In this document: positions 1 to 58,066 of the stretch, in pieces | Numbering within the stretch: the first letter of the stretch is position 1 | Layout: each line of letters starts with the position of its first letter | Notes under the pieces: model-generated | What the model was told of the DNA's origin: nothing | Database searches by the model: none | Seen by the model: the letters and a program-made list of their open reading frames with translations, nothing else | Assembly: GCA_030390025.1 (NCBI GenBank) | Contig: CM059432.1 | Span: 42,596,001 to 42,660,000, forward strand | DNA from: Squalus acanthias | Lineage: Eukaryota | DNA: 64,000 nucleotides | Direction of reading: 5' to 3' | Position numbers and translations under genes: made by a program

Positions 1-3000
1 TTGTCTATAGGCCCTCAAACAGTAGTTGTAATGTAGGGCAAAATATTAATCAGGAAATTAGAGGCGCTGGTAACAAGGGTAATATAGTGATCATGGGGGA
101 CTTTAATCTACATATAGACTGGGCAAACCAAATTTGCAGTAATAGTGTGGAGGACGTCACCTTAGACACTGATGCCTTATTACCTTTGTTACTCTCTCTG
201 TCTCTTCCTGACCCACTCTGCTTATTTTTACCCAAAACTCTACTCTGCTCCAGAGCCTTGACATTTCTCCCGCTGCTTTTAAATTTACTCTTTCTTGAAT
301 CCTTCCACCCCCTTCATTAGTTTAAAGCCCTGTCTACTGCCCTAGTTATTCGGATTGCCAGGACACTGGAATGTATGCAAGATAATTTTCTAGATCAGTA
401 TGTTGAGGAACCAACTAGGGAACAGGCTATTTTAGATCTAGTATTGTGCAATGAGAAAGGGTTAATTAATAACCTTGTAGTAAAGGGGCCTTTAGGGAGG
501 AGTGACCATAATATGATAGAATTTTATATTCAGTTTGAAAGTGATTTAGTTAAATCTGAAACTAGGGTCTTAAATCTAAACAAAGCAAACTACGTAGGTA
601 TGAGGGGAGAGTTGGCTATGGTAGATTGGGAAACTAAATTAAAAGGTATGATGGTAGACAAGCAATGGCTAGCATTTAAAGAATTAATACATAATTTAAA
701 ACAAATATACATTCCTTTAAGGCACAAAAACCCCACAGGAAAGTAAATGTGGGTCCCTTACAGGCTGAGACAGGAGATGTTATAATGGGGAATAAGGAAA
801 TGGCTGAGAAATTAAACAAATACTTTGGCCGCGATTTTTCCTATCAAGGCGACTTGGAGGCGGGACAGCTGCCTTCCAGGTTCCAGTCCCGCGCCCAATG
901 ACACCAGACGCACAGATGTGATTTGGCGTCAATTGGCCTTGTAAAGCCTGTCCTGCGGGCTTGCCGGCCAATTAGGAGAAAGCCGGTGTCAGATGACATC
1001 AGTTGATGACGCGTCATCTGCCGGTTTTCTTAAAGAGGCCACGCACAATTTTTTTGACAGCTGATTTTTCAGTGTTTGACAGCATTGAGGTGCTGCAAAC
1101 ACTGACAATCACTGTACAAAGGTGAGCCCTTGCGCCCAGGCTCTCCAGTGACCCCCTCCTTAGGCTAGAACAGATGGCAGCTGCAGGTGAGGTTACAGAA
1201 GCGGTGAGAGAGGTTCTCCCAATGAGGTGGGACTACACACACAATCCAAAACTTGTCACCTACAGAAAAGTGTAAATGCATTAAAAATGATTTTCCCAAC
1301 ATTTTCTTACCTCTGAAACTCACCAGTGTACCATTGGATCCTTCACACCACTTCTGCAGCTGTCATCAATGCAGAAACATTACAGTAGACCCACAGCACG
1401 CCACAATTACCTAGCGTGGTGTCCGGACATCGGGAAGCCCGCAGTAGACCTGTCAAAATTGCAAAAAGCCTTTTAACTGCCTGTTAACAACCTATTAACA
1501 AGCAGTTAAGTGCCTATAATCCTCTTCCAGCCACTAGGTGTTGGGTCCATGCGCAAATCGGGGACCCAACACCTGGGAAGATTGTTTTGAGGCGGCTTGA
1601 CAGCGGGTTTCTGACCCGCTGTCAATCTTTGCGATTTTGCCGGATGTCCCGTCTCCAAACCCACCCACTGAGCGCTGGCAAAATTCCGGCCTTTGTGTCT
1701 GCCTTCACGGAAGAAGACACAAAAACTTCCCAGAAATAGTGGAGTACCAAGGCTCTAGCGAGAATGAGGAACTGAAAGAAATTAGTAATAGTAAAAAAAA
1801 GTACTGGAGAAATTAATCGGACTGAAACCCGATAAATCCCCTGGACCTGATGGCCAAATCCTAGGGTTTTGAAAGAGGTGGCTATAGAGATAGTGGATGC
1901 ATTAGTTGTCATTTTCCAAAATTCCATCGATTCTGTAACGGTTCCTGCAGATTGGAAGGTAGCAAATTTAACCCCACTAATTAAGAAAGGAGTGAGAGAG
2001 AAAACGGGGAACTACAGCCCAGTTAGCCTGACATCAGTAGTAGGGAAAATGCTAGAATCTATTATTAAGGATGTGGTAACAGGGCACTTAGAAAATAATA
2101 ATAGAATTGGGCAGAGTCAACACGGATTTATGAAAGGGAAATCATGTTTGATGAATCTGTTAGAGTTTTTTAAGGTTGTAACTTGCAGAATAGATAAGGG
2201 GGAACCAGTGGATGTGGTGTATTTGGATTTTCAGAAGGCATTCGATAAGGTGCCACACAAGAGGTTATTAAACAAAATTAGGGCTCATGGGATTGGGGGT
2301 AATATATTAGCATGGATTGAGGATTGGTTAACAGACAGAAAACAGAGAGTAGGAATAAACGGGTAATTTTCGGGTTGGCAGGCTGTAACTAGTGGGGTAC
2401 CGCAAGGATCAGTGCTTGGGCCTCAGCTATTCACAATTTACATCAATGATTTGGATGAGGGGACCAAATGTAACATATCCAAGTTTGCTGATGATACAAA
2501 GCTGGGTGGGAATGTAAGTTGTGAGGAGGATGCAAGGAGGCTTCAAGGGGATATAGACAAGCTAAGTGAGTGGGCAAGAACATGGCAAATGGAATATAAT
2601 GTGGAGAAATGTGAAATTATCCACTTTGGTAGGAAAAATAGAAAAGCAGGGTATTTTTTAAATGGTGAGAGATTGGGAAATGTTGGTGTTCAGAGGGACC
2701 TGGGTGTCCTTGTACACGAATCACTGAAAGTTAACATGCAGGTACAGCAAGCAATTAGGAAAGCAAATGGTATGTTGGCCTTTATTACAAGAGGATTTGA
2801 GTATACGAGTAAAGACATCTTACTGCAATTATATAGGGCCCTGGTGAGACCACACCTGGAGTATTGTGTACAGTTTTGGTCTCCTTACCTAAGGAAGGAT
2901 ATACTTGCCATAGACGGAGTGCAACAAAGGTTCACCAGACTGATTCCTGGGTTGGGGGGATTATCCTATGAGGAGAGATTGAGTAGACTAGGCCTATATT

Positions 3001-3420
3001 CTCTAGAGTTTAGAAGAATGAGAGGTGATCTCATTGAAACATAGAAAATTCTTACAAGGCTTGACAGGGTAGATGCAGGGAGGATGTTTCCCCTGGTTGG
3101 GGAGTCTAGAACCAGGGGTCACAGTCTCAGAATAAGGGGTCGGCCATTTAGGACTGAGATGAGGAGAAATTTCTTCACTCAGAGGGTGGTGAATCTTTGG
3201 AATGCTCTACCCCAGAGGGCTATGGAGGCTCAGTCGTTGAGTATATTCGAGACAGAGATCGATAGATTCTGAATATTAAGGGGACCAAGGGATATGGGGA
3301 TAGTGCAGGAAAGTGGAGATGAGGTAGAAGATCAGCCATGATCTTATTGAATGGCAGAGCAGGCTTGAAGGGCCAAATGGCCTACTCCTGCTCCTATTTC
3401 TTATATTCTTATGTTTCTTA
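1..3420 (+). mobile_element. CR1 LINE ORF2 (APE endonuclease + RT) and 3' tail, degraded; interrupted by an inverted fragment (155-366) and a MITE (827-1691)
   Basis: ORFs with IMGDFN, LDLVL, SDHN (EN) and YLDFQKAFDKVPH, KFADD (RT); CR1-type 3' end GGCCTACTCCTGCTCCTATTTCTTATATTCTTATG near 3380-3420. Confidence 0.95.
827..1691. mobile_element. Non-autonomous PIF/Harbinger-type element (MITE) nested in CR1
   Basis: Imperfect TIRs GGCCGCGATTTT / AAAATTCCGGCC, 3-bp TSD TTT; CR1 sequence resumes after it (AAATAC-TTT-GTGTCTG). Confidence 0.85.
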
Positions 3421-4400
3421 TGATTGAATCTGCCTCCACCACCCTTTCAGGCAGTGCATTCCAGATCATAACCACTCATTGCATAAAAAAGTTTTTCCTC
3501 ATGCCGCCTTTGGATCTTCTGCCAATCACCTTAAATCTGTGTCTTCTGGTTCTCGATCCATCTGCTAATGGGAATGGTTTCTCTCTATCTACTCTGTCTA
3601 GACCCCTCATGATTTTGAACACCTCGATCAAATCTCCTCTCAATCTTCTCTGCTGTAAGGAGAACAACCCCAGCTTCTCCAGTGTATCCACGTAACTGAA
3701 GTCCCTCATCCCTGGAACCATTCTTGTAAGTCTTTCTGCACCCTCGCTAAAGCCTTCACATCCTTCCTAAAGTGCGGTGCCCAGAATTGGACACAATACT
3801 CCGGTTGTGGCTGAACCAGTGTTTTATAAAGGTTGATCATAACTTCCTTGCTTTTATACTCTATGCCTCTATTTATAAAGCCCAGGATCCCATATGTTTT
3901 TTTAACCACTTTCTCAACCTGCCCTGCCACTTTCAATGATTTGTATCTCTGTTCATGCACCCCCTTTAGAATTGTACCCTTTAGTTTATATTGCCTCTCC
4001 TCGTTCTTCCTACCAAAATGTATCACTTCGCACTTTTCTGCGTTAAACTTCATCTGCCACGTGTCAGCCCATTCCATCAGCCTGTCTATGTCCTCTTGAA
4101 GGCTATCACTATCCTCCTCACTGTTCACTGTACTTTCAAGTTTTGTGTCATCTGCAAATTTTGAAATTGTGCCCTGTACTCCCAAGTCCAAGTCATTAAT
4201 ATATATCAAGAAAAGCAGTGGTCTTAGTACTGACCCCTGGGGAACACTACTGTATACTTTCCTCCAGTCCGAAAAACAACCGTTCACCACTACTCTCTGT
4301 TTCCTGTCACTTAGCCAATTTCGTATCCATGCTGCCACTGTCTCTTTATTCCATGGGCTTCAAGTTTGCTGGAAAGCCTATTATGTGGCACTTTATCAAA
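3421..4400 (-). mobile_element. CR1 LINE RT fragment (second subfamily)
   Basis: ORFs 3706-4338 and 3476-3721: VPQGSVL, KFADD, YCVQFWAP, RRLRGDLIEVFK. Confidence 0.93.
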
Positions 4401-20480: not shown

Positions 20481-20843
20481 GTATTCCAACACCTGTGTCT
20501 CAATCTCAGCTGTGTGCATCCTTGATACGGCTGATAAGGGTAAAATATGGGCCCGTATTTTCCGCTCAGAGGCTTCTCGTGGACGGAAGCTTCCGACGAG
20601 CAAAAAAGATCCGCACCGACCTGAAGTCACTGGGCCCACAGAGATTTCCGCTTTCTGGATGAGGACTCCTGGGCAGCATATGACGTCACGCTGCCCAGGA
20701 GCGCAGCGTGCACGCAGCCTAGGGCTTCGATCGAGGGGAGACCCGCCCACAAGAGCTGTCAAAATTTATATTTGCATAGGCCACGCCCCCGAATGTTTTA
20801 ACTCTTCAGAGGCGATCAACACTGAAAGTAGCTGTGAACCTCA

Positions 20844-22572
20844 ATGGTAAGTTCTTTCTTTATAGTTTAAAAAAAAAACTTTTGTAAACTTTTAAAGACT
20901 TTTACATGGATTTGAAGAATCTTAAATAGTTTGAAAGAGATTTCAAGCAATTTAAAGAGTTTAAAAAGCCCTGAAAACATTTTCATTAATTTTAATTAAT
21001 CAGCAAAGTGAAATGGAAGGACCAAGCACAATTCGCATGATTAAGAGAGCTCAGAATTTCACTGACGGTGACATCAGCACACTCCTCAATGAGGTTGAGG
21101 CGAAGTGCCTGCGGATCATTGGGAATGAGAAGTCCAGGGCGCCACGGAAAGGACAGATGACAGCTTGGACATAAGTTGCCCAAGCTGTCAGCGCGAACTC
21201 CACCATTCCATGGACAGCGGAACAATACCGCAAAAAATTTATGATTTGATGCAATCTGCCAAGGTTTGTACAGTTATTAGAAATGTCAACTGTAACATTT
21301 GTTTAAATTTAACTGAACTATTTAAAAAAATTTCTTATATGCATGGGTGTTCTAAAGTGACTTCATTATCCAGGTATCTGAGCTTGTCATAAAATGTTAT
21401 GGCTTTGGGGTTAGCTCGGATCATCCATTGCCCTCTTATCTTTACTCCACAGCTTTGAGTTCTAAATTTTCAAATAGTGAAAAAAAACCTGTCTCCAAAG
21501 CAGCATGTGGTCCTCTCTCAAAGGCAGGTAGGGGGTCTCTGCAGGAAAAACTGTAGTTTCATTTTATTTTCTGTTTTCATTTTGGAGTAAAATTGTTAAC
21601 AACGCCAGAGAACGTGCCCTGACAGGCGGTGGTGTTGTCACTCTGAGGGAGCTATCGGAGCAAGAGGAAATGGTCACACCATTGCTTGGAATCAGTAGTG
21701 GCTGTTCAGTGCCTGGTGCCCAATCAGACATTGGGGTAAGGAAAGGTGAGTTGGTCTGCCCAGCTATATGTTTAAAACTGATAGGTGTGTGTTGAATATC
21801 AGCTTCTGTGATGTGGCAGATCGTGCTTCACCTTTGTAAATGTTTACTGTTTCCTTCTCACAGGTGGACAGCTTTCTTCTCACACACGGGATGAACAGTG
21901 TGTTGAGTCTGTGGCTGCAGAGGGCATTGGGGAAGGGGTTACAGATGCAGTGGGAGCAGTAAGTGAGGTGGAGGAGGTGGAATTTGTGCTGTGTCAGCTA
22001 GTGGAAGGGGAGGGTATGGACCCTGGATGGCTGCACAGCACCTCTCCATCTCCTGGCACCTCTGGCTCTGTGCCAGGCACAGATGACTGTCGTTCCACAG
22101 CCAGACACCAACCTGATACTGCAGAGCAGGTGGGAGAAGCAGCAAGATGTTCAACGCAACAGAATGACATAGAAGCTCAGGTGCAACAGGTTGAAGAGTT
22201 GAGGCAAGAGATCTGTACCCTTCATGGGAAGAAAGTTGACTCTCTTGCCTCTATCAGACAGTTACTATGGCGCTTGGTCAGATAAACGAGTCTCTCGTTC
22301 AACTCTTGCAGTTGCTTAAAACAGTTTCTGCTGCCATTACTTTGACTCCCGCAGAACCGCCCTTACCTGCTCCCAGCGCAGACACAGTGCAGGCCCACGA
22401 GACACCAGCTCCGCCAATTCTGATGCAAACAAACGTTGCCTTTCAGCAGCAGCGGCAGCAGCAGCCCTGTCACGAGCCAATTGCTGAAGGGCAAGAGATG
22501 GCACACAGGGGTCTTTTACTTGGCAACAGAGGGCTCCAGTCACGGGGAAGGGGAAAGCGCAGGAGACAGTAG
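20844..22572 (+). pseudogene. Harbinger Myb/SANT-like (trihelix) DNA-binding protein, 4 coding exons, inactivated
   Basis: Exons 20844-20846 (ATG|GT), 21004-21263 (KRAQNFTDGDISTLLNEVEAK..AW..VAQAV..EQYRKKF), 21586-21745 (NARERALTGGG), 21864-22572; TAA at 21172, frameshifts, degenerate exon-3 acceptor. Confidence 0.85.
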
Positions 22573-23122
22573 GTTGTCACCTTTTGCACAATCCACCTCC
22601 TTTGACCCTCAGGCACAGATGCGAGGGGTCAAATCGTTCAATTCTTTAATGTTTTGTTTTATTTAAATGTTGTCGTTGCTTTTTTTTAATTGAAATATAT
22701 ATTTGTGACTGAAAGTGCATGTAACCGTTTTGTTTAAAAAGTACAGCCTCTAGTCACTTTGAAAAAAGGTTCAACTTTTTTATTTGCAAAAAAATTCAAC
22801 TTTACAACTGTTTGAAAATTAGAAAATAGCTAGTTTCCATCTTGAATGTCTTTATTGCACTAAGAAACCAAAAAAGTCACTTTAAACTGTTTACAAATTT
22901 TATCCAAAAAATTATCTTTGCGAATGTTTGCAAAGTAGAAAATAGCTAGGTAACATTTAAAAGTTCAAAACTAAGAACATCAAAACTGTACCTCAAAAGT
23001 CTTTGATGCTGCAATAAAAGTTCACTGTTTCACTTTAAATTGTGTCTGTTCCTTTCTTTGCCTTGCTGGGGGAGGGGGAGGTACAAGGCAACACTATCAT
23101 CACCTCGTGAAGGTGTTGGCTA

Positions 23123-24240
23123 CTAGCAGTTCCCGGGAGCAGCCTTGCTTTCGGCAACACTTGGCTCCTCTGTGTCAGGCCGGGCCTCAGGCAAATAGGC
23201 ATCATCCATGTCCTCCATTTCAGCATTGAGCTCCTCTGCAGTGTTAAGGGTCAGTCCTTCCCGCAGGGCAAAGTTATGCAAAGCACAACAGGCCACCACA
23301 ATCCTTGCCACTTTCAGAGGAGAGTACTGCAAGGTCCCCCCTGACCTGTCCAGGCACCGGAAGCGTGATTTCAGAACCCCGATTGTCGTCTCCATCACTT
23401 GCCGTGTGGACACGTGTGCCTGGTTGTATCTCTCCTGAGCCTCATTATTGGTCTTGTGGTAGGGAGTCATCAGCCATGGTTTTAGCGGGTAGCCCTTGTC
23501 GCCCAATATCCATGCGGATCCTGGAGGCAATGTGCTGGGGGTGCCATATAAGTCCGAGTTACGGAGGACGAAGGAGTCATGAGCACTTCCCCGGTGATCT
23601 GCATTCACGTTTAGGATCCTGAGTTGCGCATCACAGACTATCATAACATTTAATGAATGATACCCCTTCCTGTTGATGTATGTCACAGGTGCATCAATTG
23701 GTGCCTTCAATGCAATATGGGTTCCATCGACGGCCCCAATCACTTTGGGGAATCCAGCAATGCTATAAAATGCAAGGGCCCTCTCCTTTTGATGCCAAGT
23801 GGACAAGTCAAAGTCTATGAGCTCTGAAGCCCGACGGAAAATGGCATCTGTGACCAGGTGAATGCAGGCCCTCGCAGCACTCTGGGACATGTTGGAAATG
23901 TCACCGGTGCCTGCCTGAAATGACCCACTTGCAAAGAAGTTCAATGCTGTGCTTACCTTCATGTTCACTGACAAGGCAGTGTGGGTTTTCGAGTGTGCTT
24001 GAAGGTCGTCCTTTAACATATCACAGTCGGCCGATTGCCTCTATACTGAAGCGCAGCCTCCTCACACACAACTCCTCCGACAGCATCTCAAAAGACAGCC
24101 TCCCCCTGTACACTCTCTGGGGTGGGTAGTAGTTCCTCCTGATCAGGAGACGGTGATGGTTCCTCAGTCTTCTTTGCTGTTCCCTGGTGTTTTCGATTCT
24201 ATGATGCAGAATCACACCGAGGATCAGGGCAACATCGTCA
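23123..24240 (-). pseudogene. Harbinger (HARBI1-like) DDE transposase, frameshifted near 24020
   Basis: ALNFFASGSFQ, GFPKVIGAVDGTHI, GSAHDS, LGDKGYP, VMETTIGVLKSRFRCL, CCALHNF; N-terminal part in ORF 24021-24215. Confidence 0.93.
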
Positions 24241-25114
24241 AAGGGGATGTTTCTCCCTCACAGGCTTCCTCTTTAAACAGATGAAGTACTTGTAAGGAAA
24301 ATATGGAAAGAGTTGTAAAAGTAATTTTAATAAAGTGAGTGGCTAGCAATTCACGTCGGGCTGTGGTGGGAAATGTGCGGTATCGGATCGGGCACACGTC
24401 ATACCCGCCTGATGAATATCACGGCCTGAGATGATTTTCTAAGAACTTTAACATTTTCACAAAGTCATACATACAATTTTTAAAGGGCATAGAAAAGGTA
24501 ACATATAACGAATTCATATATTCTGGCATAATTATTTAAAACATTAGTAAATATGAAATAAATTATTTTTAAACAGTCATATTCACATTTAAAAAAATGA
24601 AATCTAATTCAATAGAATGCTTACCTTGCACACAGCGAGAGTTGCTCTTTAAATGAACTACACTCCTCAAAACAAGATCCAAAACCAATAAAGTATTTAA
24701 CAAATTAAAGTTGTTAAAAACTTACATCAGGCTTTCGACCAAGAACTTTGCTCACTTTCACAGTTAAAAATGTTCCGTTTCCAAACCCCCTGCTGAAAAA
24801 GGTCTTCTTCCTGCAGCTTCTTCTGGTAGAATGCAGGCTGTACGCCTGCTTTTACTAGTCGCAGCTGTTTTGGACGTACCTGAACTCAAGCAGTTGAGAA
24901 ATCATTGAAAATCTGAGCCGGTAGGGCTACCTTTCCTGCGCATGCGGCTGATCTGTCAAGAGGATTCTTGACAGATCAGAAACACCGGTTTTCAGCCGGC
25001 ACTTGCGAGGCCCCCACGGGTGTGTAGACAGCTCGTACACACCCGTAGGGATCAGAAAATACGGCCCATGATTCGCAAACATGAGCAGTGATTATTAACT
25101 GCCTTTGAAGGTTA

Positions 25115-26475: not shown

Positions 26476-27177
26476 GGGCTGGATTTTGAATGACCCATGG
26501 AGTCGGGTTTGGAAGCGTGTGGGGGGTTAAATTTGCTGGGTCGGGGGTCCCGACCTCATCCCAACTCCAACCCGCCTCCACGCAATTTTGACAAAATCAG
26601 TCGCGGGGTTCCCGACTCCGTCCCGTCTCCAAGAGGCAGGAGAGGCCATTAAAGCCCTTAACAAGCCCTAAATTGGCTCTCTAATGCCATTTTGAAACAT
26701 TTTAGCTAGTTTAACCCTTTTCCGACGTGAAGTACGCCTGATGTGAAACACTCCAGTGAAACCTGGCGGGAGCACAAGTGGATAGCTGACTATCAGCTGC
26801 AGGTCCACTATTACAACGGAGATGTGATGAAGTTAGTAGTAGTATTAGGTCTGAAAGTTGCCTCTGATGCTGCTGCATCGAATGTCTTCAGAGACTGCAT
26901 GGCCTTTGCTGTGAGAGGACTTGGATGCAAAAAATTCTCTCTCCTCTTCCTTTCACATTTTGCATCCAGGTCCACTCACATCAGCAATGATGACATCATC
27001 AGAGGCGACTTTCAGACTGAAATCACTAATTAGTTCATGGGTTCCCACATGCTGGAACTCAATTGCCCAATTAAGTGAAAATTGCATCATTCATCCACAT
27101 TAATCTGGAGTCGGGGGGGGGGGAACACGAAATGCGAATGACACGACCCAACCCGACCCCAAGACAAAATCCAGCCC
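26476..27177. mobile_element. PIF/Harbinger MITE inserted in a CR1-type tail
   Basis: Perfect 13-bp TIRs GGGCTGGATTTTG / CAAAATCCAGCCC, TSD ATA. Confidence 0.92.
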
Positions 27178-33060: not shown

Positions 33061-36000
33061 CATAGAAACATAGAAGATAGGAGCAGGAGTAGGCCATTCG
33101 GCCCCTCGAGCCTGCTCCGCCATTCGATGAGATCATGGCTGATCATCCAAACTCAGTACCCTGTACCTGCCTTCTCCCCATATCCCTTGATACCTTTAGC
33201 TTTAAGAAATATATCTAACTCATTCTTGAATATATTTAATGACTTGGCCTCAACTACCTTCTGTGGTAGAGAATTCCACAGGTTCACCACTCTCTGGGTG
33301 AAGAAATTCTTCCTCATTTCTGTCCTAAATGGCTTACCCGTTATCCTTAGATTATGACCCCTGGTTCTGGACTCTCCGACCATCAGGAACATTCTTCCTG
33401 CATCTAGTTTGTCCAGACCTGTCAGAATTTTATATGTTTCGATGAGATCCCCTCTCATTCTTCTATACTCCAGCGAGTATAAGCCCAATCGACCCAATCT
33501 CTCCTCATATGTCATTCCTGCCATCCCAGGTATCAGACTTGTGAATCTTCGCTGAACTCCTTCCATGGCAAGAACATCCTTCCTCAGATAAGGCGACCAA
33601 AACTGCACACAGTACTCAAGGTGTGGTCTCACCAAGGCCTTGTACAACTGCAGCAGGACATCCCTGTTCCTATACTCAAACCCTTTCGCTATGAAGGCCA
33701 ACATACCATTTGCCTTCTTCACCGCCTGCTGCACATGCATGCTTACTTTCAGCGACTGGTGCACAAGGACACCTAGGTCTCGTTGCACTTCCCCTTCTCC
33801 CAATCTATTGCCATTCAGATAATAGTCTGCCTTTCTGTTTTTGACACCAAAGTGGATAACCTCGCACTTATCCACGTTATATTGCATCTGCCACGCTTCT
33901 GCCCACTCACCCAACCTGTCCAAATCATCCTGGAGTTTCTCGGTATCCTCCTCGCAGCACACACTCCCACCCAGCTTTGTGTCATCTGCAAACTTGGAGA
34001 TATTACATTTAGTTCCCTTATCTAGATCATTAATCTTTATTGTGAATAGCTGGGGTCCAAGGACCGATCCCTGCAGTACCCCACTAGTCACTGCTTGCCA
34101 CTCGGAAAAAGACCCATTAATTCCTACTCTCTGCTTTCTGTCCGCCAACCAGTTCTCTATCCAAGTCAATACCTTGCCCCCAATCCCATGTGCTTTAACT
34201 TTACATGCAAATCTCTTATGCGGGACCTTATCGAAAGCCTTTTGAAAGTCCAAATACACCACATCTACTGGTTCTCCCTTATCTATTTTCCCAGTTACGT
34301 CCTCAAAAAATTCCAGTAGATTAGTCAAGCACGATTTACCTTTTGTAAATCCATGTTGACTTTGTCCGATCCTGTCACTGTTTTTCAAGTGCTCAGCTAT
34401 TACATCCTTTATAATGGACTCTAGCATTTTCCCCAATACCGATGTCAGGCTTACCGGTCTGTAATTCCTCGCTTTCTCTCTACCACCCTTTTTGAATAGT
34501 GGGGTAACATTGGCTACCCTCCAATCCATGGGTACAGTTCCAGATTCCATCGAATGTTGGAAGATGATCAGCAATGCATCTACTATTTCTAGGGCCACTT
34601 CCTTAAGTACCCTAGGATGTAGATTATCAGGCCCTGGGGATTTATCGGCCTTCAATCCCGTCAATTTCCCTAACACCATTTCCCTGCAAATACTGATTTC
34701 TTTCAGTTCCTCCCTTTCATCAGACCGTATGTTCTCCAACATCTCTGGGAGGTTATTTGTGTCCTCCTTTGTGAAGACAGAACCAAAATATGCATTTAAT
34801 TGGTCTGCCATTTCTTTGTTCCCCATTATAAGTTCCCCCGATTCTGACTGCAAGGGACCTACACTTGATTTCACTAATCTTTTTCTCTTCACATATCTAT
34901 AAAAGCTCTTACAGTCAGTTTTTATGTTCCCAGCAAGCTTACTTCATATTCTATTTTCCCCTTCTTAATTAATCCCTTTGTCCTCCTTTGTTGAATCCTA
35001 AACTGCTCCCAATCCTCAGGGCTACCGCTTTTTCTGGCCAATTTATATGTCCTCTCCTTGGATCTTATGCTATCCCTAATTTCCCTCGTTAGCCACGGTT
35101 GAGTCACCCTTTTTGTTTTACTCTTATGCCACACTGGGATGAACAAATTCTGTAGTTCATCCATGCAGTCTTTGAATGTTTGCCATTGCCTATCCACCGT
35201 CAACCCCTTGAGTGACATTCCCCAATCAATCCTACCCAATTCGCGCCACATACCATCGTAGTTTCCTTTATTTAAATTCAGGACCCTAGTCTCTGATTCA
35301 ACGACTTCACTCTCCATCCTAATGAAAAATTAGATCATATTATGATCACTCTGACCCAAGGGGCCTCGTACAACAAGATTGCTAATTAATCCTTTCTCGT
35401 TACATAATACCCAGTCTAAGATGGCCTGCTCTCTGGTTGGTTCCTCGACATATTGTTCCAGAAAACCATCTCGTAAACATTCTAGGAATTCCTCCTCCAC
35501 AGTATTTTTACTAATTTGGTTAGCCCAATCTATATGTAAATTAAAGTCACCCATGATGACTGCTGTGCCCTTACTGCATGCTTCTCTAATTTCCCTTTTA
35601 ATGCCGCCCCCAACCTCTGTATTACTGTTTGGAGGTCTATATACCACTCCCACTAAAGTTTTCTGCCCCTTGTTATTTCTCAGTTCTACCCATACAGATT
35701 CCGCATCATCAGAGCTAATATCCTTCGTTTCAATTGTGTTAATCCCCTCTTTAACCAGCAATGCTACCCCACCTCCCTTTCTTTTTTGCCTATCTTTCCT
35801 AAATATTGACTAACCCTGGATGTTGAGTTCCCAGCCTTGGCCACCCTGGAGCCATGTTTCTGTAATCCCAATCAAATCGTATTCATTTACCTCTATTTGC
35901 GCAGCTAATTCATCCACCTTGTTCCGAATGCTCCTTGCATTAAGACACAAAGCCTTCAGGCTTGTTTTTTTAACACTCTCAGACCTATATGAATTATTAT

Positions 36001-38714: not shown

Positions 38715-41700
38715 CAAGCATAATACAGTAATCATGGGGGACTTTAATCTACATATAGACTGTGCAAACCAAATTTGCAGTAATAGTGTGGAGGATGAAT
38801 TCATGGAATGTATGCACGATCATTTTCTAGATCAGTATGTTAGGAAACAGGCTATTTTAGATCTAGTATTGTGCAATGAGAAAGAGCTAATTAATAACCT
38901 TGTAGTAGAGGGGCCTTTAGGGGAGAGTGACCAGAATATGATAGAATTTTATATTCAGTTTGAAAGCGATTTAGTTAAATCCGAAACTAGGGTCTTAAAT
39001 CTAAACAAAGCAAACTACGTAGGTCTGAGGGGTGAGTTGGCTACGGTAGATTGGGAAACTACGTTAAAAGATATGATGGTAGAGAAGCAATGGCTAGCAT
39101 TTAAAGAATTACTACATAATTTACAACAAATATACATTCCTTTTCGGTGCAAAATCCCCTCAGGAAAAGTGGTCCAACCGTGGCTAATGAGAAGTTAAAG
39201 ATAGTATTAGATCAAAGGAAGAGGCTTATAATGTTGCCAAAAAGAGTAGTAAGTCTGAGGATTGGGAGGATTTTAGAATTCAGCAAAGGAGGACCAAGAA
39301 ATTGATAAAGAAAGGGAAAATAGAATGAGAGTAAACTAGCGAGAGACATAAAAACAGACTGTAAAAGCTTCTATAGGTATGTAAAAAGGAAAAGATTAGC
39401 AAAAGAAAATGTGGGTCCCTTACAGGCTGAGACAGGAGAACTTATAAAGGGGAATAAGGAAATGGCAGCGAAATTAAACAAATACTTTGGGCTGGATTTT
39501 CTCAGCCCCGAGGAGGTGGGTATGGAGGCGGGACTGCCGGGGAAGTTGCAGAATTTGGGGGCGAGTGACAAACCCTCCGTGCCCTCTTGCCAGGAGGCGG
39601 GAAGCCGTCCTGCCCCAGGTCCCGTCTCCTTGGAGGCGGGAAGGGATTAAAGCCTAATAACTGCCTGTTAACAGGCAGAAAATAGGATTATCTCAATTTT
39701 TCGTTCCGAAGTGCGGGCTTCCCGACCTGGGGGTACCCCGCCAGGGTGTAGGACCCGAGTAGGAGGTCTGCGGGGGTCGGAGGGGTCTGAAAGTGCAATG
39801 TAGAGGTGAGTGATGGGTGCAAGTGTGGAGTGGTAAGTATGTGAGGTGAATGTAAAGTGTTAGAAAATGTTCACTTACCTTTGGTTCTGCCTACAGCCTT
39901 CAGCCGCTGTAGAGCCGGAGTCTCGACATCTCCATTGTAGAGATCACAGACTGGCTGTTGGATCTTCTGATCCAACAGTCATCTGATTTCTACAAAGTAG
40001 AAAGGTTTGATGAGTCCTGAACACAAGGACTCCTCAAACTACACAGAATGTCAGTGTTTGACAGCTTCACAGAGCTGTCAAACAATGACATTTCTTCTTT
40101 CAAAAATTCTTGACAGATGACACGTCATACGTTGACGTGCTCTGTCACTGACTTCCCCCTAATTGGCCTGCTGAGTCTGCTGGGCGGGCTTAACAAGGTC
40201 AATCAGGGGAAAATCCCGCTGGTTGACCAGAGGCTGATGGAGGCGGGACTGAAACCAGGCAAGCAGCAGTCCCGCCTCCAACACGTCTCCATTCATAAAA
40301 TCCAGCCCCTTGTGTCTGTCTTCACGGAAGAAGACGCAAAAACTTCCCGGAAATAGTGGAGAACCAAGGGTCTAGCGAGAATGAGGAACTGAAAGAAATT
40401 AGTATTCGTAAAAAAATAGTACTGGAGAAATTAATGGGACTGAAAGCCGATAAATCCCTGGACCAGATGGCCTACATCCTAAGGTTTTGAGAGGTGACTA
40501 TAGAGATAGTGGATGCATTGGTTGTCATTTTCCAAAATTCCATAGATTCTAGAAATGTTCCCGTGTTTGGAAGGTGGCACATATAACTCCACTATTTAAG
40601 AAAGGAGGGAAGAGAGAAAACGGGGAACTACAGACCCGTTAGCCTGATGTCAGTAGTAGGGAAATCCTAGAATCTATTATTAAGAACGTGGTAACAGGGA
40701 GCTTAGAAAATAATAATAGGATTGGGCAGAGTCAACACGGATTTATGAAAGAGAAATCGTGTTTGACGAATCTGTTAGAGTTTTTTAAGGTTGTAACGAG
40801 CAAAATAGATAAGGGAGAACCAGTGGATGTGGCGTATTTGGATTTTCAGAAGGCATTCGATAAGGTGCCACACAAGGTTATTAAACAAAATTAGGGCTCA
40901 TGGGACTGGCGGTAATATACTAGCATGGATTGAGGATTGGTTAACAGACAGAAAACAGAGTAGGAATAAACGGGTAATTTTCAGGTTGGCAGGCTGTAAC
41001 TAGTGGGGTACCACAAGGATCAGTGCTTGGGCCTCAGCTATTCACAATTTACATCAATGATTTGGATGAGGGGACCAAATGTAATATATCCAAGTTTGCT
41101 GATGATACAAAGCTGGATGGGAATGTAAGTTGTGAGGACGATGCAAAGAGACTTCAAGGGGATATAGACAAGCTAAGTGAGTGGGCAAGAACATGGCAAA
41201 TGGAATATAATGTGGAGAAATGTGAGGTTATCCACTTTGGTAGGAAAAATAGAAAAGCAGAGTATTTTTTAAATGGTGGGGGATTGGGAAATGTTGGTGT
41301 TCAGAGGGACCTGGGTGTCCTTGTACACGAATCACTGAAAGTTAACATGCAGCTACAGCAAGCAATTAGGAAAGCAAATGGTATGTTGGCCTTTATTACA
41401 AGAGCATTTGAGTATAAGAGTAAAGACGTCTTACTGCAATTATATAGGGCCCTAGTGAGACCTTTGTGTACAGTTTTGGTCTCCTTACTTATGGAAGGAT
41501 ATACTTGCCATAGAGGGAGCGCACCGAAGGTTCACCAGACTGATTCTTGGGATGGGGGGATTGTCCTATGAGGAGAGATTGAGTAGACTAGGTCTATATT
41601 CTCTAGAGTTTAGAAGAATGAGAGGTGATCTCATTGAAACATGGAAAATTCTTACAGGGCTTGACAGGGTAGATGCAGGGAGGATATTTCCCCTGGCCGG

Positions 41701-42004
41701 GGAGTCTAGAACCAGGGGTTACAGTCTCAATAAGGGGTCAGCCATTTAGGACTGAGATGAGGAGAAATTTCTTCACTCAAGGGTGGTGAATCTTTGGAAT
41801 TCTGTACCCCAGAGGGCTGTGGAGGCTCAGTCATTGAGTATATTCAAGACAGAGATCGATAGATTTTTGGATATTAAGGGAATCGAGGGATACGGGGATA
41901 GTGCAGGAAAGTGGAGTTGAGGTAGAAGATCAGCCATGATCTTATTGAATGGCGGAGCAGGCTCGAGGGGCCAAATGACCTACTCCTGCTCCTATTTCTT
42001 ATGT
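38715..42004 (+). mobile_element. CR1 LINE ORF2, same subfamily as 1-3420, interrupted by a MITE
   Basis: ORFs 38692-39198, 40688-40894, 41023-41571, 41552-41749 nearly identical to the first copy. Confidence 0.95.
39489..40308. mobile_element. PIF/Harbinger MITE nested in CR1
   Basis: TIRs GGGCTGGATTTT / AAAATCCAGCCC, TSD TTT/CTT. Confidence 0.9.
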
Positions 42005-53393: not shown

Positions 53394-54228
53394 GGCCCGT
53401 AATTTCCGATAGGAGGCTTCCTGCATGCGGATGCCTCCTATCGGAAAAAAAATCTATGAACTTACCTGAGGGCTCCCGAGGTCTTCCGCTCCTTGGCCTG
53501 TCCACAGTCGAAATGTGCAGGGCCCACGTATCCCAGGGGCGCATGCAGTTCGCAAGCGTCCCTGGGATTATGTGGGCCAGGCCAGCCAATAGGAGAAGGG
53601 AATCTCCCTTCATACTTTTGACAGATAGACCTGACGAAAGGTCATCGACCTGAAACGTTAACTCTGTTTCTTCACAGATGCTGCCTGACCTGCTGAGTGG
53701 CTCCAGCATTTTCTGTTTTTATTTCAGATTTCCAGCATCTGCAGTATTTTCTTTTTGTCAAATATATGAATGGAGATCACCCCAAAAAGACACTAAAACA
53801 TTAAATACATTTTTAAAAAACCATCACGTATTTAAAATGAGTTAAAATTACATTAAATTCAATATTTTAAACAAAAATTTAATTTTTTGAAAAAAAGAAT
53901 TAAAGCTTTTTACGGGGTTAAAAATAAACTTACCTTTTTAAAAGTATTTTTAAATTATAAATGAGTGAAAAATATATATTTTTTTTACTTTTTTCAACTC
54001 TTATGCTCGTAAAAGCAGGCCGTACACCTGCTTTTACCAGGCGTAAGATTTCTAAGGGTTTTCAGCGGGCGGGAGTTATGCAGAAAGCGGAACTCTCCAC
54101 CCGCAGAGGCCCTTCTCCAGGGCAGGCGGCGATCTGTCTAGAGCATTCAGCGCAAACCGGCATTTCCGATGTCCCTACGGATGTGTACACAGCGCGTACA
54201 CACCCGTAGGCATTGGAAAATACGGGCC
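53394..54228. mobile_element. Non-autonomous Harbinger related to 20550-25067, carrying a nested Penelope terminal fragment (~53630-53756)
   Basis: TIRs GGCCCGTAATTTCC / GGAAAATACGGGCC; subterminal CGTACACACCCGTAGG shared with the full-length element; flanks AAT/ATT. Confidence 0.85.
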
Positions 54229-54600: not shown

Positions 54601-57600
54601 GGAGTGGCTGCAGGGCATTCTGGAGGGGGAGGGTGAACAGCCAGTTGTCATGGTGCATATAGGTACCAACGATATAGGTAAAAAATGGGATGAGGTCCTA
54701 AAAGCTGAATATAGGGAGTTAGGAGGTAAATTAAAAAATAGGACCTCAAAAGTAGTAATCTCAGGATTGCTACCAGTGCCACGTGCTAGTCAGAGTAGAA
54801 ATAGAAGGATATTTCAGATGAATACGTGGCTAGAGGAATGGTGCAAGGAGGAGGGATTCAAATTCCTGGGACATTGGAACCGGTTCTGGGGGAGGTGGGA
54901 CCAGTACAAACTGGACGGTTTGCACCTGGGTAGGACCGGGACCGATGTCCTAGGGGGAGTGATTGTTAGTGCTGTTGGGTAGGGTTTAAACTAAAATGGC
55001 AGGGGGTCGGGAACCTGTGCAGGGAGACAGAGGAAAGGGAAGCAAGGATAGAAGCAAAAGACAGGAAGGAGAAAAGCAAAAGTGGAAGTCAGAGAAATCA
55101 AGGGTGTAAATCAAACATGGCCACAGTAAAAAATAATTCTAAAAGGTGTAAGAGTGTTAAAAAAACAAGCCTGAAGGCTTTGTGTCTTAATGCGAGGAGC
55201 ATTCGTAATAAGGTGGATGAATTAGCTGCGCAAATAGATGTAAACGGATATGATATAATTGGGATTACGGAGACATGGCTCCAGGGTGACCAAGGCTGGG
55301 AATTCAAAATCCAGGGGTATTCAATATTCAGGAAGGACAGGCAAAAAGGAAAAGGAGGTGGGGTAGCATTGCTGGTTAAAGAGGAGATTAACACAATAGT
55401 AAGGAAGGATATTAGCTCTGATGATGTGGAATCTGTATGGGTAGAGCTGAGAAATACCAAGGGGCAGAAAACATTAGTGGGAGTTGTATACAGACCCCCA
55501 AACAGTAATGCTGAGGTTGGGGATGGCATTAAATGGGAAATTAGAGACGCGTGCAATTGGGGCACAGCAGTTATCATGGGTGACTTTAATCTACATATAG
55601 ATTGGGCTAACCAAATTAGTAACAATACTGTGGAGGAGGAATTCCTAGAGTGTATACGGGATGGTTTCCTGGACCAATATGTAGAGGAACCAACTAGAGA
55701 TCAGCCCATCTTAGACTGGGTATTATGTAATGAGAAAGGATTAATTAGCAGTCTTGTTGTGCGAGGCCCCTTGGGGAGGAGCGATCATAATATGATAGAA
55801 TTCTTCATTAAGGTGGAGAGTAAAGTAGTTGACTCAGAGACTAGGGTCCTGAATTTAAATAAAGGAAACTACGATGGTATGAGGCGCGAGTTGGCTAGGA
55901 TGGATTGGGGAACGTTACTTAAAGGGTTGACGGTGGATAGAGAATGGCAAACATTTAAAGATCGCATGGATGAACTACAGAATTTGTTCATCCCTGTTTG
56001 GCATAAAAATAAAACAAAAAGGGTGACTCAACCGTGGCTAACAAAGGAAATTAGGGATAGCATAAGATCCAAGGAGAGGTCATATAAATTGGCCAGAAAA
56101 AGCAGCAAACCTGAGGATTGGGAGCACTTTAGGATTCAGCAAAGGAGGACAAAGGGATTAATTAAGAGGGGGAAAATGGAATATGAGAGTAAGCTTCAAG
56201 GAACATAAAAACTGACTGTAAAAGCTTCTATAGCTATGTGAAGAGAAAAAGATTGGTGAAGTCAAGCGTAGGTCCCTTGCAGTCAGAATCAGGGGAATTT
56301 ATAATGGGGAACAAAGAAATGGCAGACCAATTAAATACATACTTTGGTTCTGTCTTCACAAAGGAGGACACAAATAACCTCCCAGAGATGTCGGGGAACA
56401 TAGGGTCTAATGAGAGGGAGGAACTGAATGAAATCAGTATTTGTAGGGAAATGGTGTTAGGGAAACTGATGGGATTGAAGGCCAATAAATCCCTAGGGCC
56501 TGATAATCGACATCCGAGGGTACTTAAGGAAGTGGCCCTAGAAATAGTAGATGCATTGCTGGTCATCTTCCAAAATTCTATAGACTCTGGAACAGTTCCC
56601 ATGGATTGGAGGGTAGCTAATGTAACTCCACTATTTAAAAAAGGTGGTAGAGAGAAAATGGGGAATTATAGACCGGTAAGCCTGACATCGGTAGTGGGGA
56701 AAATGCTAGAGTCCATTATAAAAGATGTAATAGCAAAGCACTTGGAAAACAGTGACAGGATCGGACAAAGTCAACATGGATTTACAAAAGGTAAATCAGG
56801 CTTGACTAATCTACTGGAATTTTTTGAGGATGTAACTGGTAAAATAGATAAGGGAGAACCAGTGGATGTGGTGTATTTGGAATTTCAGAAGGCTTTCGAT
56901 AAGGTCCCGCATAAGAGATTAGCGTGCAAAGTTAAAGCACATGGGATTGGGGGTAAGGTACTGACTTGGATAGAGAACTGGTTGGCAGACAGGAAGCAAA
57001 GAGTTGGAATAAACTGGTCTTTTTCCGAGTGGCAGGCAGTAACTAGTGGGGTACCGCAGGGATCGGTGCTAGGACCCCAGTTATTCACTATATATATATT
57101 AATGATCTAGACGAGGGAACGAGATGTAATATCTCCAAGTTTGCAGACGACACAAAGCTGGGTGGGCGTGTGTGCTGTGAGGAGGATGCAGAGAAACTGC
57201 AGTATGATTTGGACAGGTTGGGTGATTGGGCAGATGCATGGCAGATGCAGTATAATGTGGATAAATGCGAGGTTATCCACTTTGGTGGCAAGAACAGGAA
57301 GGCAGATTATTATCTGAACGGCAATAGATTGGGAAAAGGGGAAATGGAACGAGACCTGGGTGTCCTTGTGCACCAGTCGCTGAAGGTAAGCATGCAGGTG
57401 CAGCAGGCGGTTAAGAAGGCAAATGGTATGTTGGCCTTCATAGCGAGAGGATTCGAGTACAGGAGCAAGGATGTCTTGCTGCAGTTGTACAGGGCCTTGG
57501 TGAGACCACACCTTGAGTATTGTGTGCAGTTTTGGTCACCTTATCTGAGGAAGGATGTTCTTGCCATGGAGGGAGTGCAGCGAAGATTCACCAGACTGAT

Positions 57601-58066
57601 ACCTGGGATGGCAGGAATGACGTATGAAGAGAGATTGGGTCAATTAGGCTTATATTCGCTAGAGTTTAGAAGAATGAGCAGGGATCTCATTGAAACTTAC
57701 AAAATTCTAACAGGACTAGACAGACTAGATGCAGGAAGGATGTTCCCGATGGCGGGGGAGTCCAGAACCAGGGGTCACAGTCTAAGGATAAGGGGTAAGC
57801 CATTTAGGACTGAGATGAGGAGGAATTTCTTCACCCAGAGAGTGGTGAACCTGTGGAATTCTCTACCACAGAAGGCAGTTGAGGCCAATTCATTAAATAT
57901 ATTCAAGAAGGAGTTAGATATATTTCTTAAGGCTAAAGGGATCAAGGGATATGGGGAGAAAGCAGGGACAGGGTACTGAATTTGGATGATCAGCCATGAT
58001 CTCATTAAATGGCGGAACAGGCTCGAGGGGCCGAATGGCCTACTCCTGCTCCTATCTTCTATGTTT
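54601..58066 (+). mobile_element. CR1 LINE: ORF1 esterase C-terminus and complete ORF2 in three frames
   Basis: ORFs 54650-54982, 55117-56208, 56238-57110, 57170-57979; same subfamily as 33061-37140. Confidence 0.97.

Follow-up and report, generated by a model that had tools for sequence, protein, structure and literature searches.

A palindromic landing preference of Harbinger transposons as the probable cause of recurrent insertion at one nucleotide of a CR1-like LINE in Squalus acanthias

The window analysed here is a stretch of 64,000 nucleotides from Squalus acanthias (assembly GCA_030390025.1, contig CM059432.1, positions 42,596,001 to 42,660,000). It contains two copies of a CR1-like long interspersed nuclear element (LINE), each interrupted at the same nucleotide by a non-autonomous DNA transposon of Harbinger type (Table 1). 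Both inserts are placed after ...AAACAAATAC-TTT (flank word ...TTAAACAAATAC) and are followed by GTGTCTG of the LINE. An earlier interpretation made from the letters of the window, here called the sequence-only reading, had pointed out the identical position; reading of the junctions gave the same result and revealed 3-bp duplications. The position is a genuine hot spot throughout the genome, filled by many families in both orientations, and its cause is most likely a landing motif that the LINE happens to spell and not homing directed at the LINE.

Table 1. Coordinates of the interrupted LINE copies, the inserts and the related sites in the window
Feature	Position	Strand	Remarks
CR1-like LINE copy 1, left of landing site	1..826	+	90-93% identity to copy 2
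Left duplication copy of insert 1, TTT	824..826	.	direct reading
Insert 1, 865-bp non-autonomous Harbinger element	827..1691	+	ends GGCCGCGATTTTTCC and GGCAAAATTCCGGCC; imperfect 15-bp terminal inverted repeats
Right duplication copy of insert 1, TTT	1692..1694	.	direct reading
CR1-like LINE copy 1, right of landing site: reverse-transcriptase region and 3' tail	1695..3420	+	92.6% to copy 2
CR1-like LINE copy 2, left of landing site	38715..39488	+	last three bases TTT = left duplication
Insert 2, 820-bp non-autonomous Harbinger-type element of another family	39489..40308	-	inverted relative to insert 1; ends GGGCTGGATTTTCTC and CATAAAATCCAGCCC
Right duplication copy of insert 2, CTT	40309..40311	.	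one change from TTT; left copy TTT
CR1-like LINE copy 2, right of landing site	40312..42004	+	
Empty homologous site TAC-TTT-GGTTCTG	56343..56345	+	sister CR1 subfamily, copy 55568-58064
Empty homologous site TAT-TTT-GGTTCTG	34785..34787	-	second sister-subfamily copy, 33068-35562
Third Harbinger-type element, 702 bp	26476..27177	+	GGGCTGGATTTT ends; duplication ATA; non-LINE site; extra family for landing-site sampling

The landing site is located within open reading frame (ORF) 2 of the LINE, between a weak endonuclease match and the reverse-transcriptase domain RVT_1, and direct reading gives ...K L N K Y F before and V S A/V F T E E D after the junction. In copy 1 the endonuclease match (Exo_endo_phos_2, segment 3-317) is sub-threshold with 23.2 bits against a curated cut-off of 27.4, RVT_1 is found twice (1851-2363 and 2367-3041), and the tail at 3395-3421 consists of three direct repeat units of 8-9 bp ending in TTCTTATG. 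The host element shows the traits of a CR1-type LINE, namely short direct repeats as its 3' tail and an ORF2 in which a reverse transcriptase is accompanied by the sub-threshold endonuclease match; the label CR1-like is taken from the sequence-only reading and from the form of the tail. The flanks of the two interrupted copies, referred to below as subfamily CR1-A, are 90.2%, 92.9% and 93.1% identical on the left side, and the identity given for the right side extends over 1,714 nt. Copy 1 carries in addition an unrelated segment of about 215 bp at approximately 155-369, without Harbinger-type ends, and about 235 bp of its ORF2 are deleted at 745 (compared with 39160-39400 in copy 2). The copies of the sister subfamily in the window are 74-78% identical to CR1-A.

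The two inserts align with each other on opposite strands only, in patches that are collinear. Positions 28-66 of insert 1 correspond to 793-755 of insert 2 at 87% identity, 106-194 to 715-626 at 74%, 243-290 to 600-552 at 80%, 604-663 to 237-178 at 76% and 820-839 to 46-27 at 90%. A short internal palindrome matches in both senses (639-663 of insert 1 with 161-185 of insert 2 at 92%). A genome search gave, among the matches listed, at least 39 further full-length copies of insert 1 at 90-93% identity and at least 39 of insert 2 at 89-93%; all sampled copies of the latter were at other sites, and the closest relatives of either insert (93%, among the matches listed) were found at unrelated sites. 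The inserts in the window are independent insertions, because they are far less alike (patches of 74-92%) than their flanks (90-93%) and each has closer relatives elsewhere. The same comparison rules out a duplication, or a single insertion later inverted between its terminal inverted repeats (TIRs). In these points, two different inserts related in opposite orientation and inserted independently, the sequence-only reading was correct.

The occupancy of the site was estimated by counts of exact words over the 3.71-Gb genome, with reversed-pattern controls that gave 0 in all four counts. At the left junction (TTAAACAAATAC-TTT followed by GGSC or by GTGTC) 1,724 sites were filled and 1,949 empty, or 47% filled; the filled-junction word was TTAAACAAATACTTTGGSC, with 1,724 occurrences and a reversed control of 0. 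The right junction (GSCC or ATAC followed by TTT-GTGTCTGTCTTC) gave 1,241 filled and 2,107 empty sites, or 37%. The sister subfamily, which differs by two bases in the right half-site and two more in the left, had its GGTTCTG variant filled in 40 and empty in 11,983 cases (0.33%, 40/12,023), and all 40 filled sites bear a GCCC-type end. Its emptiness in the window, stated already in the sequence-only reading, is thus matched in the whole genome by an occupancy approximately 110-fold lower. The two window copies of the sister subfamily are 91.3% identical to each other, comparable to the CR1-A copies, and unequal age is therefore no obvious cause of the gap, as far as one pair of each can tell. 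One of the rare filled GGTTCTG sites (L078, the same place as L045; G000:C1:34486269-34496268) holds a 4.3-kb Harbinger element of autonomous type, in which both a DDE_Tnp_4 ORF and a Myb-like ORF are present.

On contig C1 the first 30 listed sites that are filled (left LINE flank followed by GGSC) all continue with an end of the type GG(C/G)C...ATTTT. Both junctions were found in 23 of them, giving 15 elements of 648-1,415 bp and eight of 1,545-7,351 bp; TTT is present on both sides in 19, the right triplet is changed in two and two have a terminal deletion. Together with the two window inserts these make 25 inserts at the CR1 nucleotide, which fall into five clusters when grouped with a minimum identity of 80% and a minimum length coverage of 60%. 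Both orientations occur in each of the three larger clusters, with ten elements in one orientation and 13 in the opposite one. At 40 loci, 45,224 bp of sequence aligned to CR1 were inspected, and no further Harbinger insertion was upheld. The spike in both orientations and with several families, which the sequence-only reading had proposed to look for genome-wide, is thus present, and an even spread of insertions along CR1, which would have contradicted it, is not seen.

Apparent extra Harbinger-like segments in the CR1 loci turned out to be unrelated repeats nested in the search library, or CR1 tail fragments. Short segments that match the CR1 3' end in reverse, with the start ...CATAG|AAACATAGAA, were found inserted in or beside CR1 copies at four loci (L061, L067, L068 and L069), in L061 only a few bases away from the Harbinger site. 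They could be tail-derived short interspersed nuclear elements or truncated LINE copies.

The Harbinger identity of the elements, also proposed in the sequence-only reading, is borne out by the long inserts at the same CR1 site. Five of six encode the transposase domain DDE_Tnp_4 (PF13359; E 5e-13 to 3e-40), and the inserts in L078, L080 and L081 have Myb_DNA-bind_5 (PF13873; E 4e-10 to 9e-9) on the strand opposite to the transposase ORF; three ORFs of the 3.2-kb insert in L072 gave no match to any Pfam family. The TIRs are short, of the form GG(C/G)C...ATTTT, and 12 of 15 bases agree between both ends of each insert. The duplicated triplet is A/T-rich and yet not the TWA of plants. Flanking triplets were identical in 42 of 90 sampled elements, and most of the others had one base different or an end that was not located. 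Transposase, Myb/SANT-like ORF, 3-bp duplication, short TIRs and an extended target preference, the characters of PIF/Harbinger, were all found. A 5.4-kb element encoding DDE_Tnp_4 (the insert in L084) has ends that correspond to the two halves of insert 1 at 80% and 90% identity, which makes insert 1 an internal-deletion derivative of such an autonomous-type element. Insert 2 gave terminal matches only with the sampled long inserts (48-145 nt at 74-85%), and it is assigned to PIF/Harbinger by its ends, its duplication and its landing motif, together with its patchy similarity to insert 1.

Motifs of the GGAGGCGGG type are found near both ends of insert 1, and seven near the ends of insert 2. 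Within about 150 bp of the ends the three window elements have two, seven and five such motifs, compared with 12 in the remaining 57 kb (both strands). By analogy with Harbinger3N_DR (PMC2836001), they are candidate binding sites of the Myb-like protein.

A 4.5-kb autonomous-type Harbinger with a further end variant, GGCCCGTATTTT ... AAAATACGGCCC, lies at 20550-25067 of the window with ATG on both flanks. It contains an open frame of 305 amino acids that matches DDE_Tnp_4 completely (23126-24040, minus strand; E 1e-40). At 20542-20561 its end forms a small palindrome with the word AAAATATGGGCC just upstream, and a second end of its type is located at 54228.

Landing sites in the genome were sampled from 87 copies, of which 29 are related to insert 1, 29 to insert 2 and 29 to the third element of Table 1. 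Three of these copies are at the CR1 nucleotide, seven at a site in the reverse-transcriptase domain of another LINE (the RT site), two elsewhere in CR1-like sequence and the rest outside. The GGGCTGGATTTT word occurs 57,250 times (three-quarters filter at -20; control 103); in a hand tally of 100 listed places six ends are at the CR1 site (about 6/85 without chance rows) and 14 at the RT site. For the GGCCGGAATTTT ends, with 8,283 occurrences, three of 100 listed places are at the CR1 site. Approximately 93-97% of the sampled Harbinger copies are thus outside the CR1 site, and a concentration of most copies in one target, as in site-specific LINE homing, is not observed.

The RT site is a second nucleotide-precise hot spot. 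It is placed in the RVT_1 domain of a related CR1-like family, about ten codons past the FADD box, and reads GCAGACTC-TTT-GTGTCCTC on the non-coding strand (...SCEEDTKSLQRD on the coding strand). The sampled loci are L004, L007, L023, L096, L106, L110 and L144; in the whole genome 1,304 sites are filled and 3,320 empty, or 28% filled.

Recurrent contexts in other repeats were seen among the 100 listed GGGCTGGATTTT rows: GGNGACCAAAGAC-AAT with a mirror-image partner in seven, CCATAGAGTC-ATA with the partner ATTATGACTC-TAT in six and TTGCTTTTGTACTC-TAT-GCCTCTATTT in three (examples at G000:C1:2761973-2762704 and 5110918-5111722 and in L002, L017 and L132). The commonest GGGCTGGATTTT context, with 15 of the 100 rows, was dropped as a hot spot since the 12-mer occurs there by chance, within a young repeat that shows no likeness to the Harbinger elements. 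This repeat of about 4.2 kb is found at G000:C1:565187-573712 and dispersed (L146-L148), with copies 98.6% identical, three of which form a tandem array with a 4,247-bp period.

A weight matrix of the landing sequence was built without any LINE site. From 90 elements the 42 with identical triplets were retained and nine in recurrent contexts removed, leaving 33 sites or 66 half-sites. The half-site before the triplet is C(-10) A(-9) R(-8) A(-7) n A(-5) C(-4). Of the 66 half-sites, 55 have A at -7 and 47 have C at -4, and the outer positions of the triplet are rich in A/T. No information is found at positions -20 to -11, which serve as an internal control. The full motif is the palindrome CARANAC-NNN-GTNTYTG, approximately 17 bp long with about 7 bits, and its core is common to all three sampled families. 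The CR1 site CAAATAC-TTT-GTGTCTG agrees with every informative position in both halves; the site of the sister subfamily has mismatches at -8 in the left half and at -5 and -6 in the right. The likelihood ratios against background are 37,364 for CR1-A, 319 for the sister subfamily and 20,454 for the RT site, with a mean over the 64-kb window of 0.89 (expected 1).

Occupancies were predicted from these ratios with approximately 4-6x10^4 elements, a count that covers the GGGCTGGATTTT and GGCCGGAATTTT end variants. About 65,000 true GGGCTGGATTTT ends (57,250 x 4/3 x 0.85), with 94 of 120 sampled ends exact, give approximately 42,000 elements, and about 11,000 GGCCGGAATTTT ends, with 20 of 30 exact, give approximately 16,000. 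The predicted occupancy is 33-45% for CR1-A (observed 37-47%; bootstrap 5-95% range 10-82%), 0.34-0.51% for the sister subfamily (observed 0.33%; 0.04-1.8%) and 20-28% for the RT site (observed 28%; 6-54%). Prediction and observation agree in order of magnitude, not precisely, and the LINE-free matrix both ranks and scales all three sites.

These results point to one explanation, to which we assign a probability of roughly 0.85: the insertions fall on the same nucleotide because a stretch of ORF2 matches the palindromic sequence of about 17 bp that the Harbinger machinery prefers as landing site throughout the genome. Several points weigh against it. The matrix contains only 33 sites and treats its positions as independent; 48 of the 90 sampled elements were excluded for unequal duplication copies or an end that was not found, besides the nine in recurrent contexts. 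The bootstrap ranges are wide, the element number is rough, being derived from exact-word counts and hand tallies, and equal exposure of both CR1 subfamilies is based on one pair of copies each. In seven of the 30 filled loci the right junction was not resolved within 10 kb. The exact-word counts miss diverged copies, and the sites counted may comprise some segmental duplicates or LINEs retrotransposed with the insert in place. Which protein reads the target is our inference.

From the known biology of the family, a Myb-like ORF1 protein would bind the ends of the element and bring in the transposase; PIF/Harbinger transposition requires both proteins (PMC2836001). The transposase complex, acting as a symmetric dimer, would then read both half-sites and cut with a 3-bp stagger. 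The part of the LINE would be to scatter thousands of copies of a near-ideal site, renewed as long as these codons persist. Excision is usually precise in PIF/Harbinger (PMC2836001), and sites counted as empty may therefore include some that were once filled.

The sequence-only reading had held that the Harbinger family targets a specific site in the LINE. The nucleotide-precise spike is confirmed, but the LINE as such does not appear to be the target. Homing would mean that a Harbinger lineage has evolved to seek the CR1 position as a self-renewing safe harbour, so that insertion or retention is raised by the LINE context itself and not by the short motif alone. With 37-47% of the intact CR1 sites filled, and two of the strongest recurrent landing sites lying within LINE ORF2 coding sequence, such a relation could be suspected. 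Motif preference is nevertheless favoured over targeting of the LINE because only few copies are at the site (3/87, about 6/85 and 3/100 sampled copies or listed ends), because hot spots of equal precision are found in other repeats and because a matrix without LINE sites predicts the three LINE site variants within its error. The zebrafish element Harbinger3_DR, moreover, is reported to have the same half-sites (PMC3016246), and the preference therefore looks inherited and not fitted to this LINE. We regard homing as unlikely, and the addition of a safe harbour is not needed by the data.

Much less probable still is shared descent, with one CR1 insertion copied by segmental duplication or by retrotransposition of a LINE bearing its insert, and one copy inverted between the terminal repeats. 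The shared nucleotide, the shared duplication and the related ends would fit, and such copies may well account for some of the 1,724 filled junctions. The patchy likeness of the window inserts set against their flanks, and the 93% relatives of each at unrelated sites, do not fit, nor do inserts at the site that form five clusters in both orientations with lengths from 648 to 7,351 bp. Retention bias, in which near-random insertions survive preferentially in dead LINE copies where they are harmless, is equally improbable: neutral insertions are expected in remnants of transposable elements (TEs), and an excess of TE-in-TE nesting is general in the human genome (PMC2836564), but selection cannot set insertions on one nucleotide, ten of the 12 sampled CR1-like insertions are at two positions with none upheld elsewhere in 45 kb of CR1, and the equally dead sister subfamily is filled at only 0.33%.

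If landing is motif-driven, the motif might in addition act as a selective sieve on LINE lineages, so that transposon families shape each other's coding sequence, a thought that we offer as speculative and doubtful. The CR1 subfamily that spells the palindrome would then lose about 40% of its copies, active masters included, by knock-out at one codon, and the sister subfamily, with Gly-Ser (GGT TCT) instead of Val-Ser (GTG TCT), would escape approximately 100-fold. The sister subfamily has 3.6 times more intact copies of the site.

The case gives a quantitative natural example of how a modest target preference of a cut-and-paste transposon leads to one retrotransposon position being filled in more than one third of its copies; with two or more bases changed the effect is lost. 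It also calls for caution in annotation, as the presence of identical nested insertions in different copies of a LINE does not necessarily imply duplication. No description of this hot spot was found in titles and abstracts of the papers listed in literature searches on Harbinger in the context of shark, CR1 or miniature inverted-repeat transposable elements, or on Harbinger target sites.

The elements are further vertebrate Harbinger families with a target preference of the Harbinger3_DR type, and they reveal no new mechanism. According to PMC3016246, Harbinger3_DR of zebrafish integrates with high specialisation into the palindromic AAACACCWGGTCTTT, and for PIF/Harbinger in general the extended target preference is given as 9 bp for plant elements and 15 bp for those of vertebrates (PMC2836001). 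The elements described here resemble Harbinger3_DR and Harbinger3N_DR as vertebrate PIF/Harbinger transposons with a transposase, a Myb-like ORF1, a 3-bp duplication and a strong preference for a palindrome of about 15 bp (PMC3016246, PMC2836001). The Harbinger3_DR half-sites, AAACAC and GTCTTT, agree with ARANAC and GTNTYT of the present motif, whereas the central triplet is CWG in Harbinger3_DR and loosely W-N-W here (TTT, ATA, AAA, TAA and others). Host and terminal repeats are different as well, and the elements described here, known from their sequences, number tens of thousands of copies in many families. The Harbinger3_DR type of preference is thereby extended to large families of another vertebrate genome. 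PIF/mPIF of maize and Ping/Pong/mPing of rice differ in their 9-bp preference and TTA/TAA duplication (PMC2836001), compared with about 17 bp and a variable triplet here.

Accumulation of nested insertions at set positions of a targeted TE has a parallel in the human genome, where according to Levy, Schwartz and Ast 2010 hot spots of TE-in-TE insertion at specific positions reveal the integration motif of the incoming TE (PMC2836564). That study deals with Alu, hAT, ERV1 and MaLR (PMC2836564), and the incoming elements here are Harbinger. Nucleotide-precise TE-in-TE hot spots are already known in principle from that work (PMC2836564). The present analysis adds a 2x2 contrast of the two CR1 subfamilies, a second site in a LINE together with its occupancy, and a prediction in numbers obtained from a matrix free of LINE sites. 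To our knowledge the human TE-in-TE study has no comparable single-nucleotide occupancy of 37-47%. Recurrent insertion at a single nucleotide of sequences present in many copies is otherwise familiar from R1 and R2 in ribosomal DNA and from Tx1L in Tx1D, which are found almost only at their target. The Harbinger elements are alike in this recurrence at one nucleotide, but differ in that approximately 93-97% of the sampled copies lie elsewhere.

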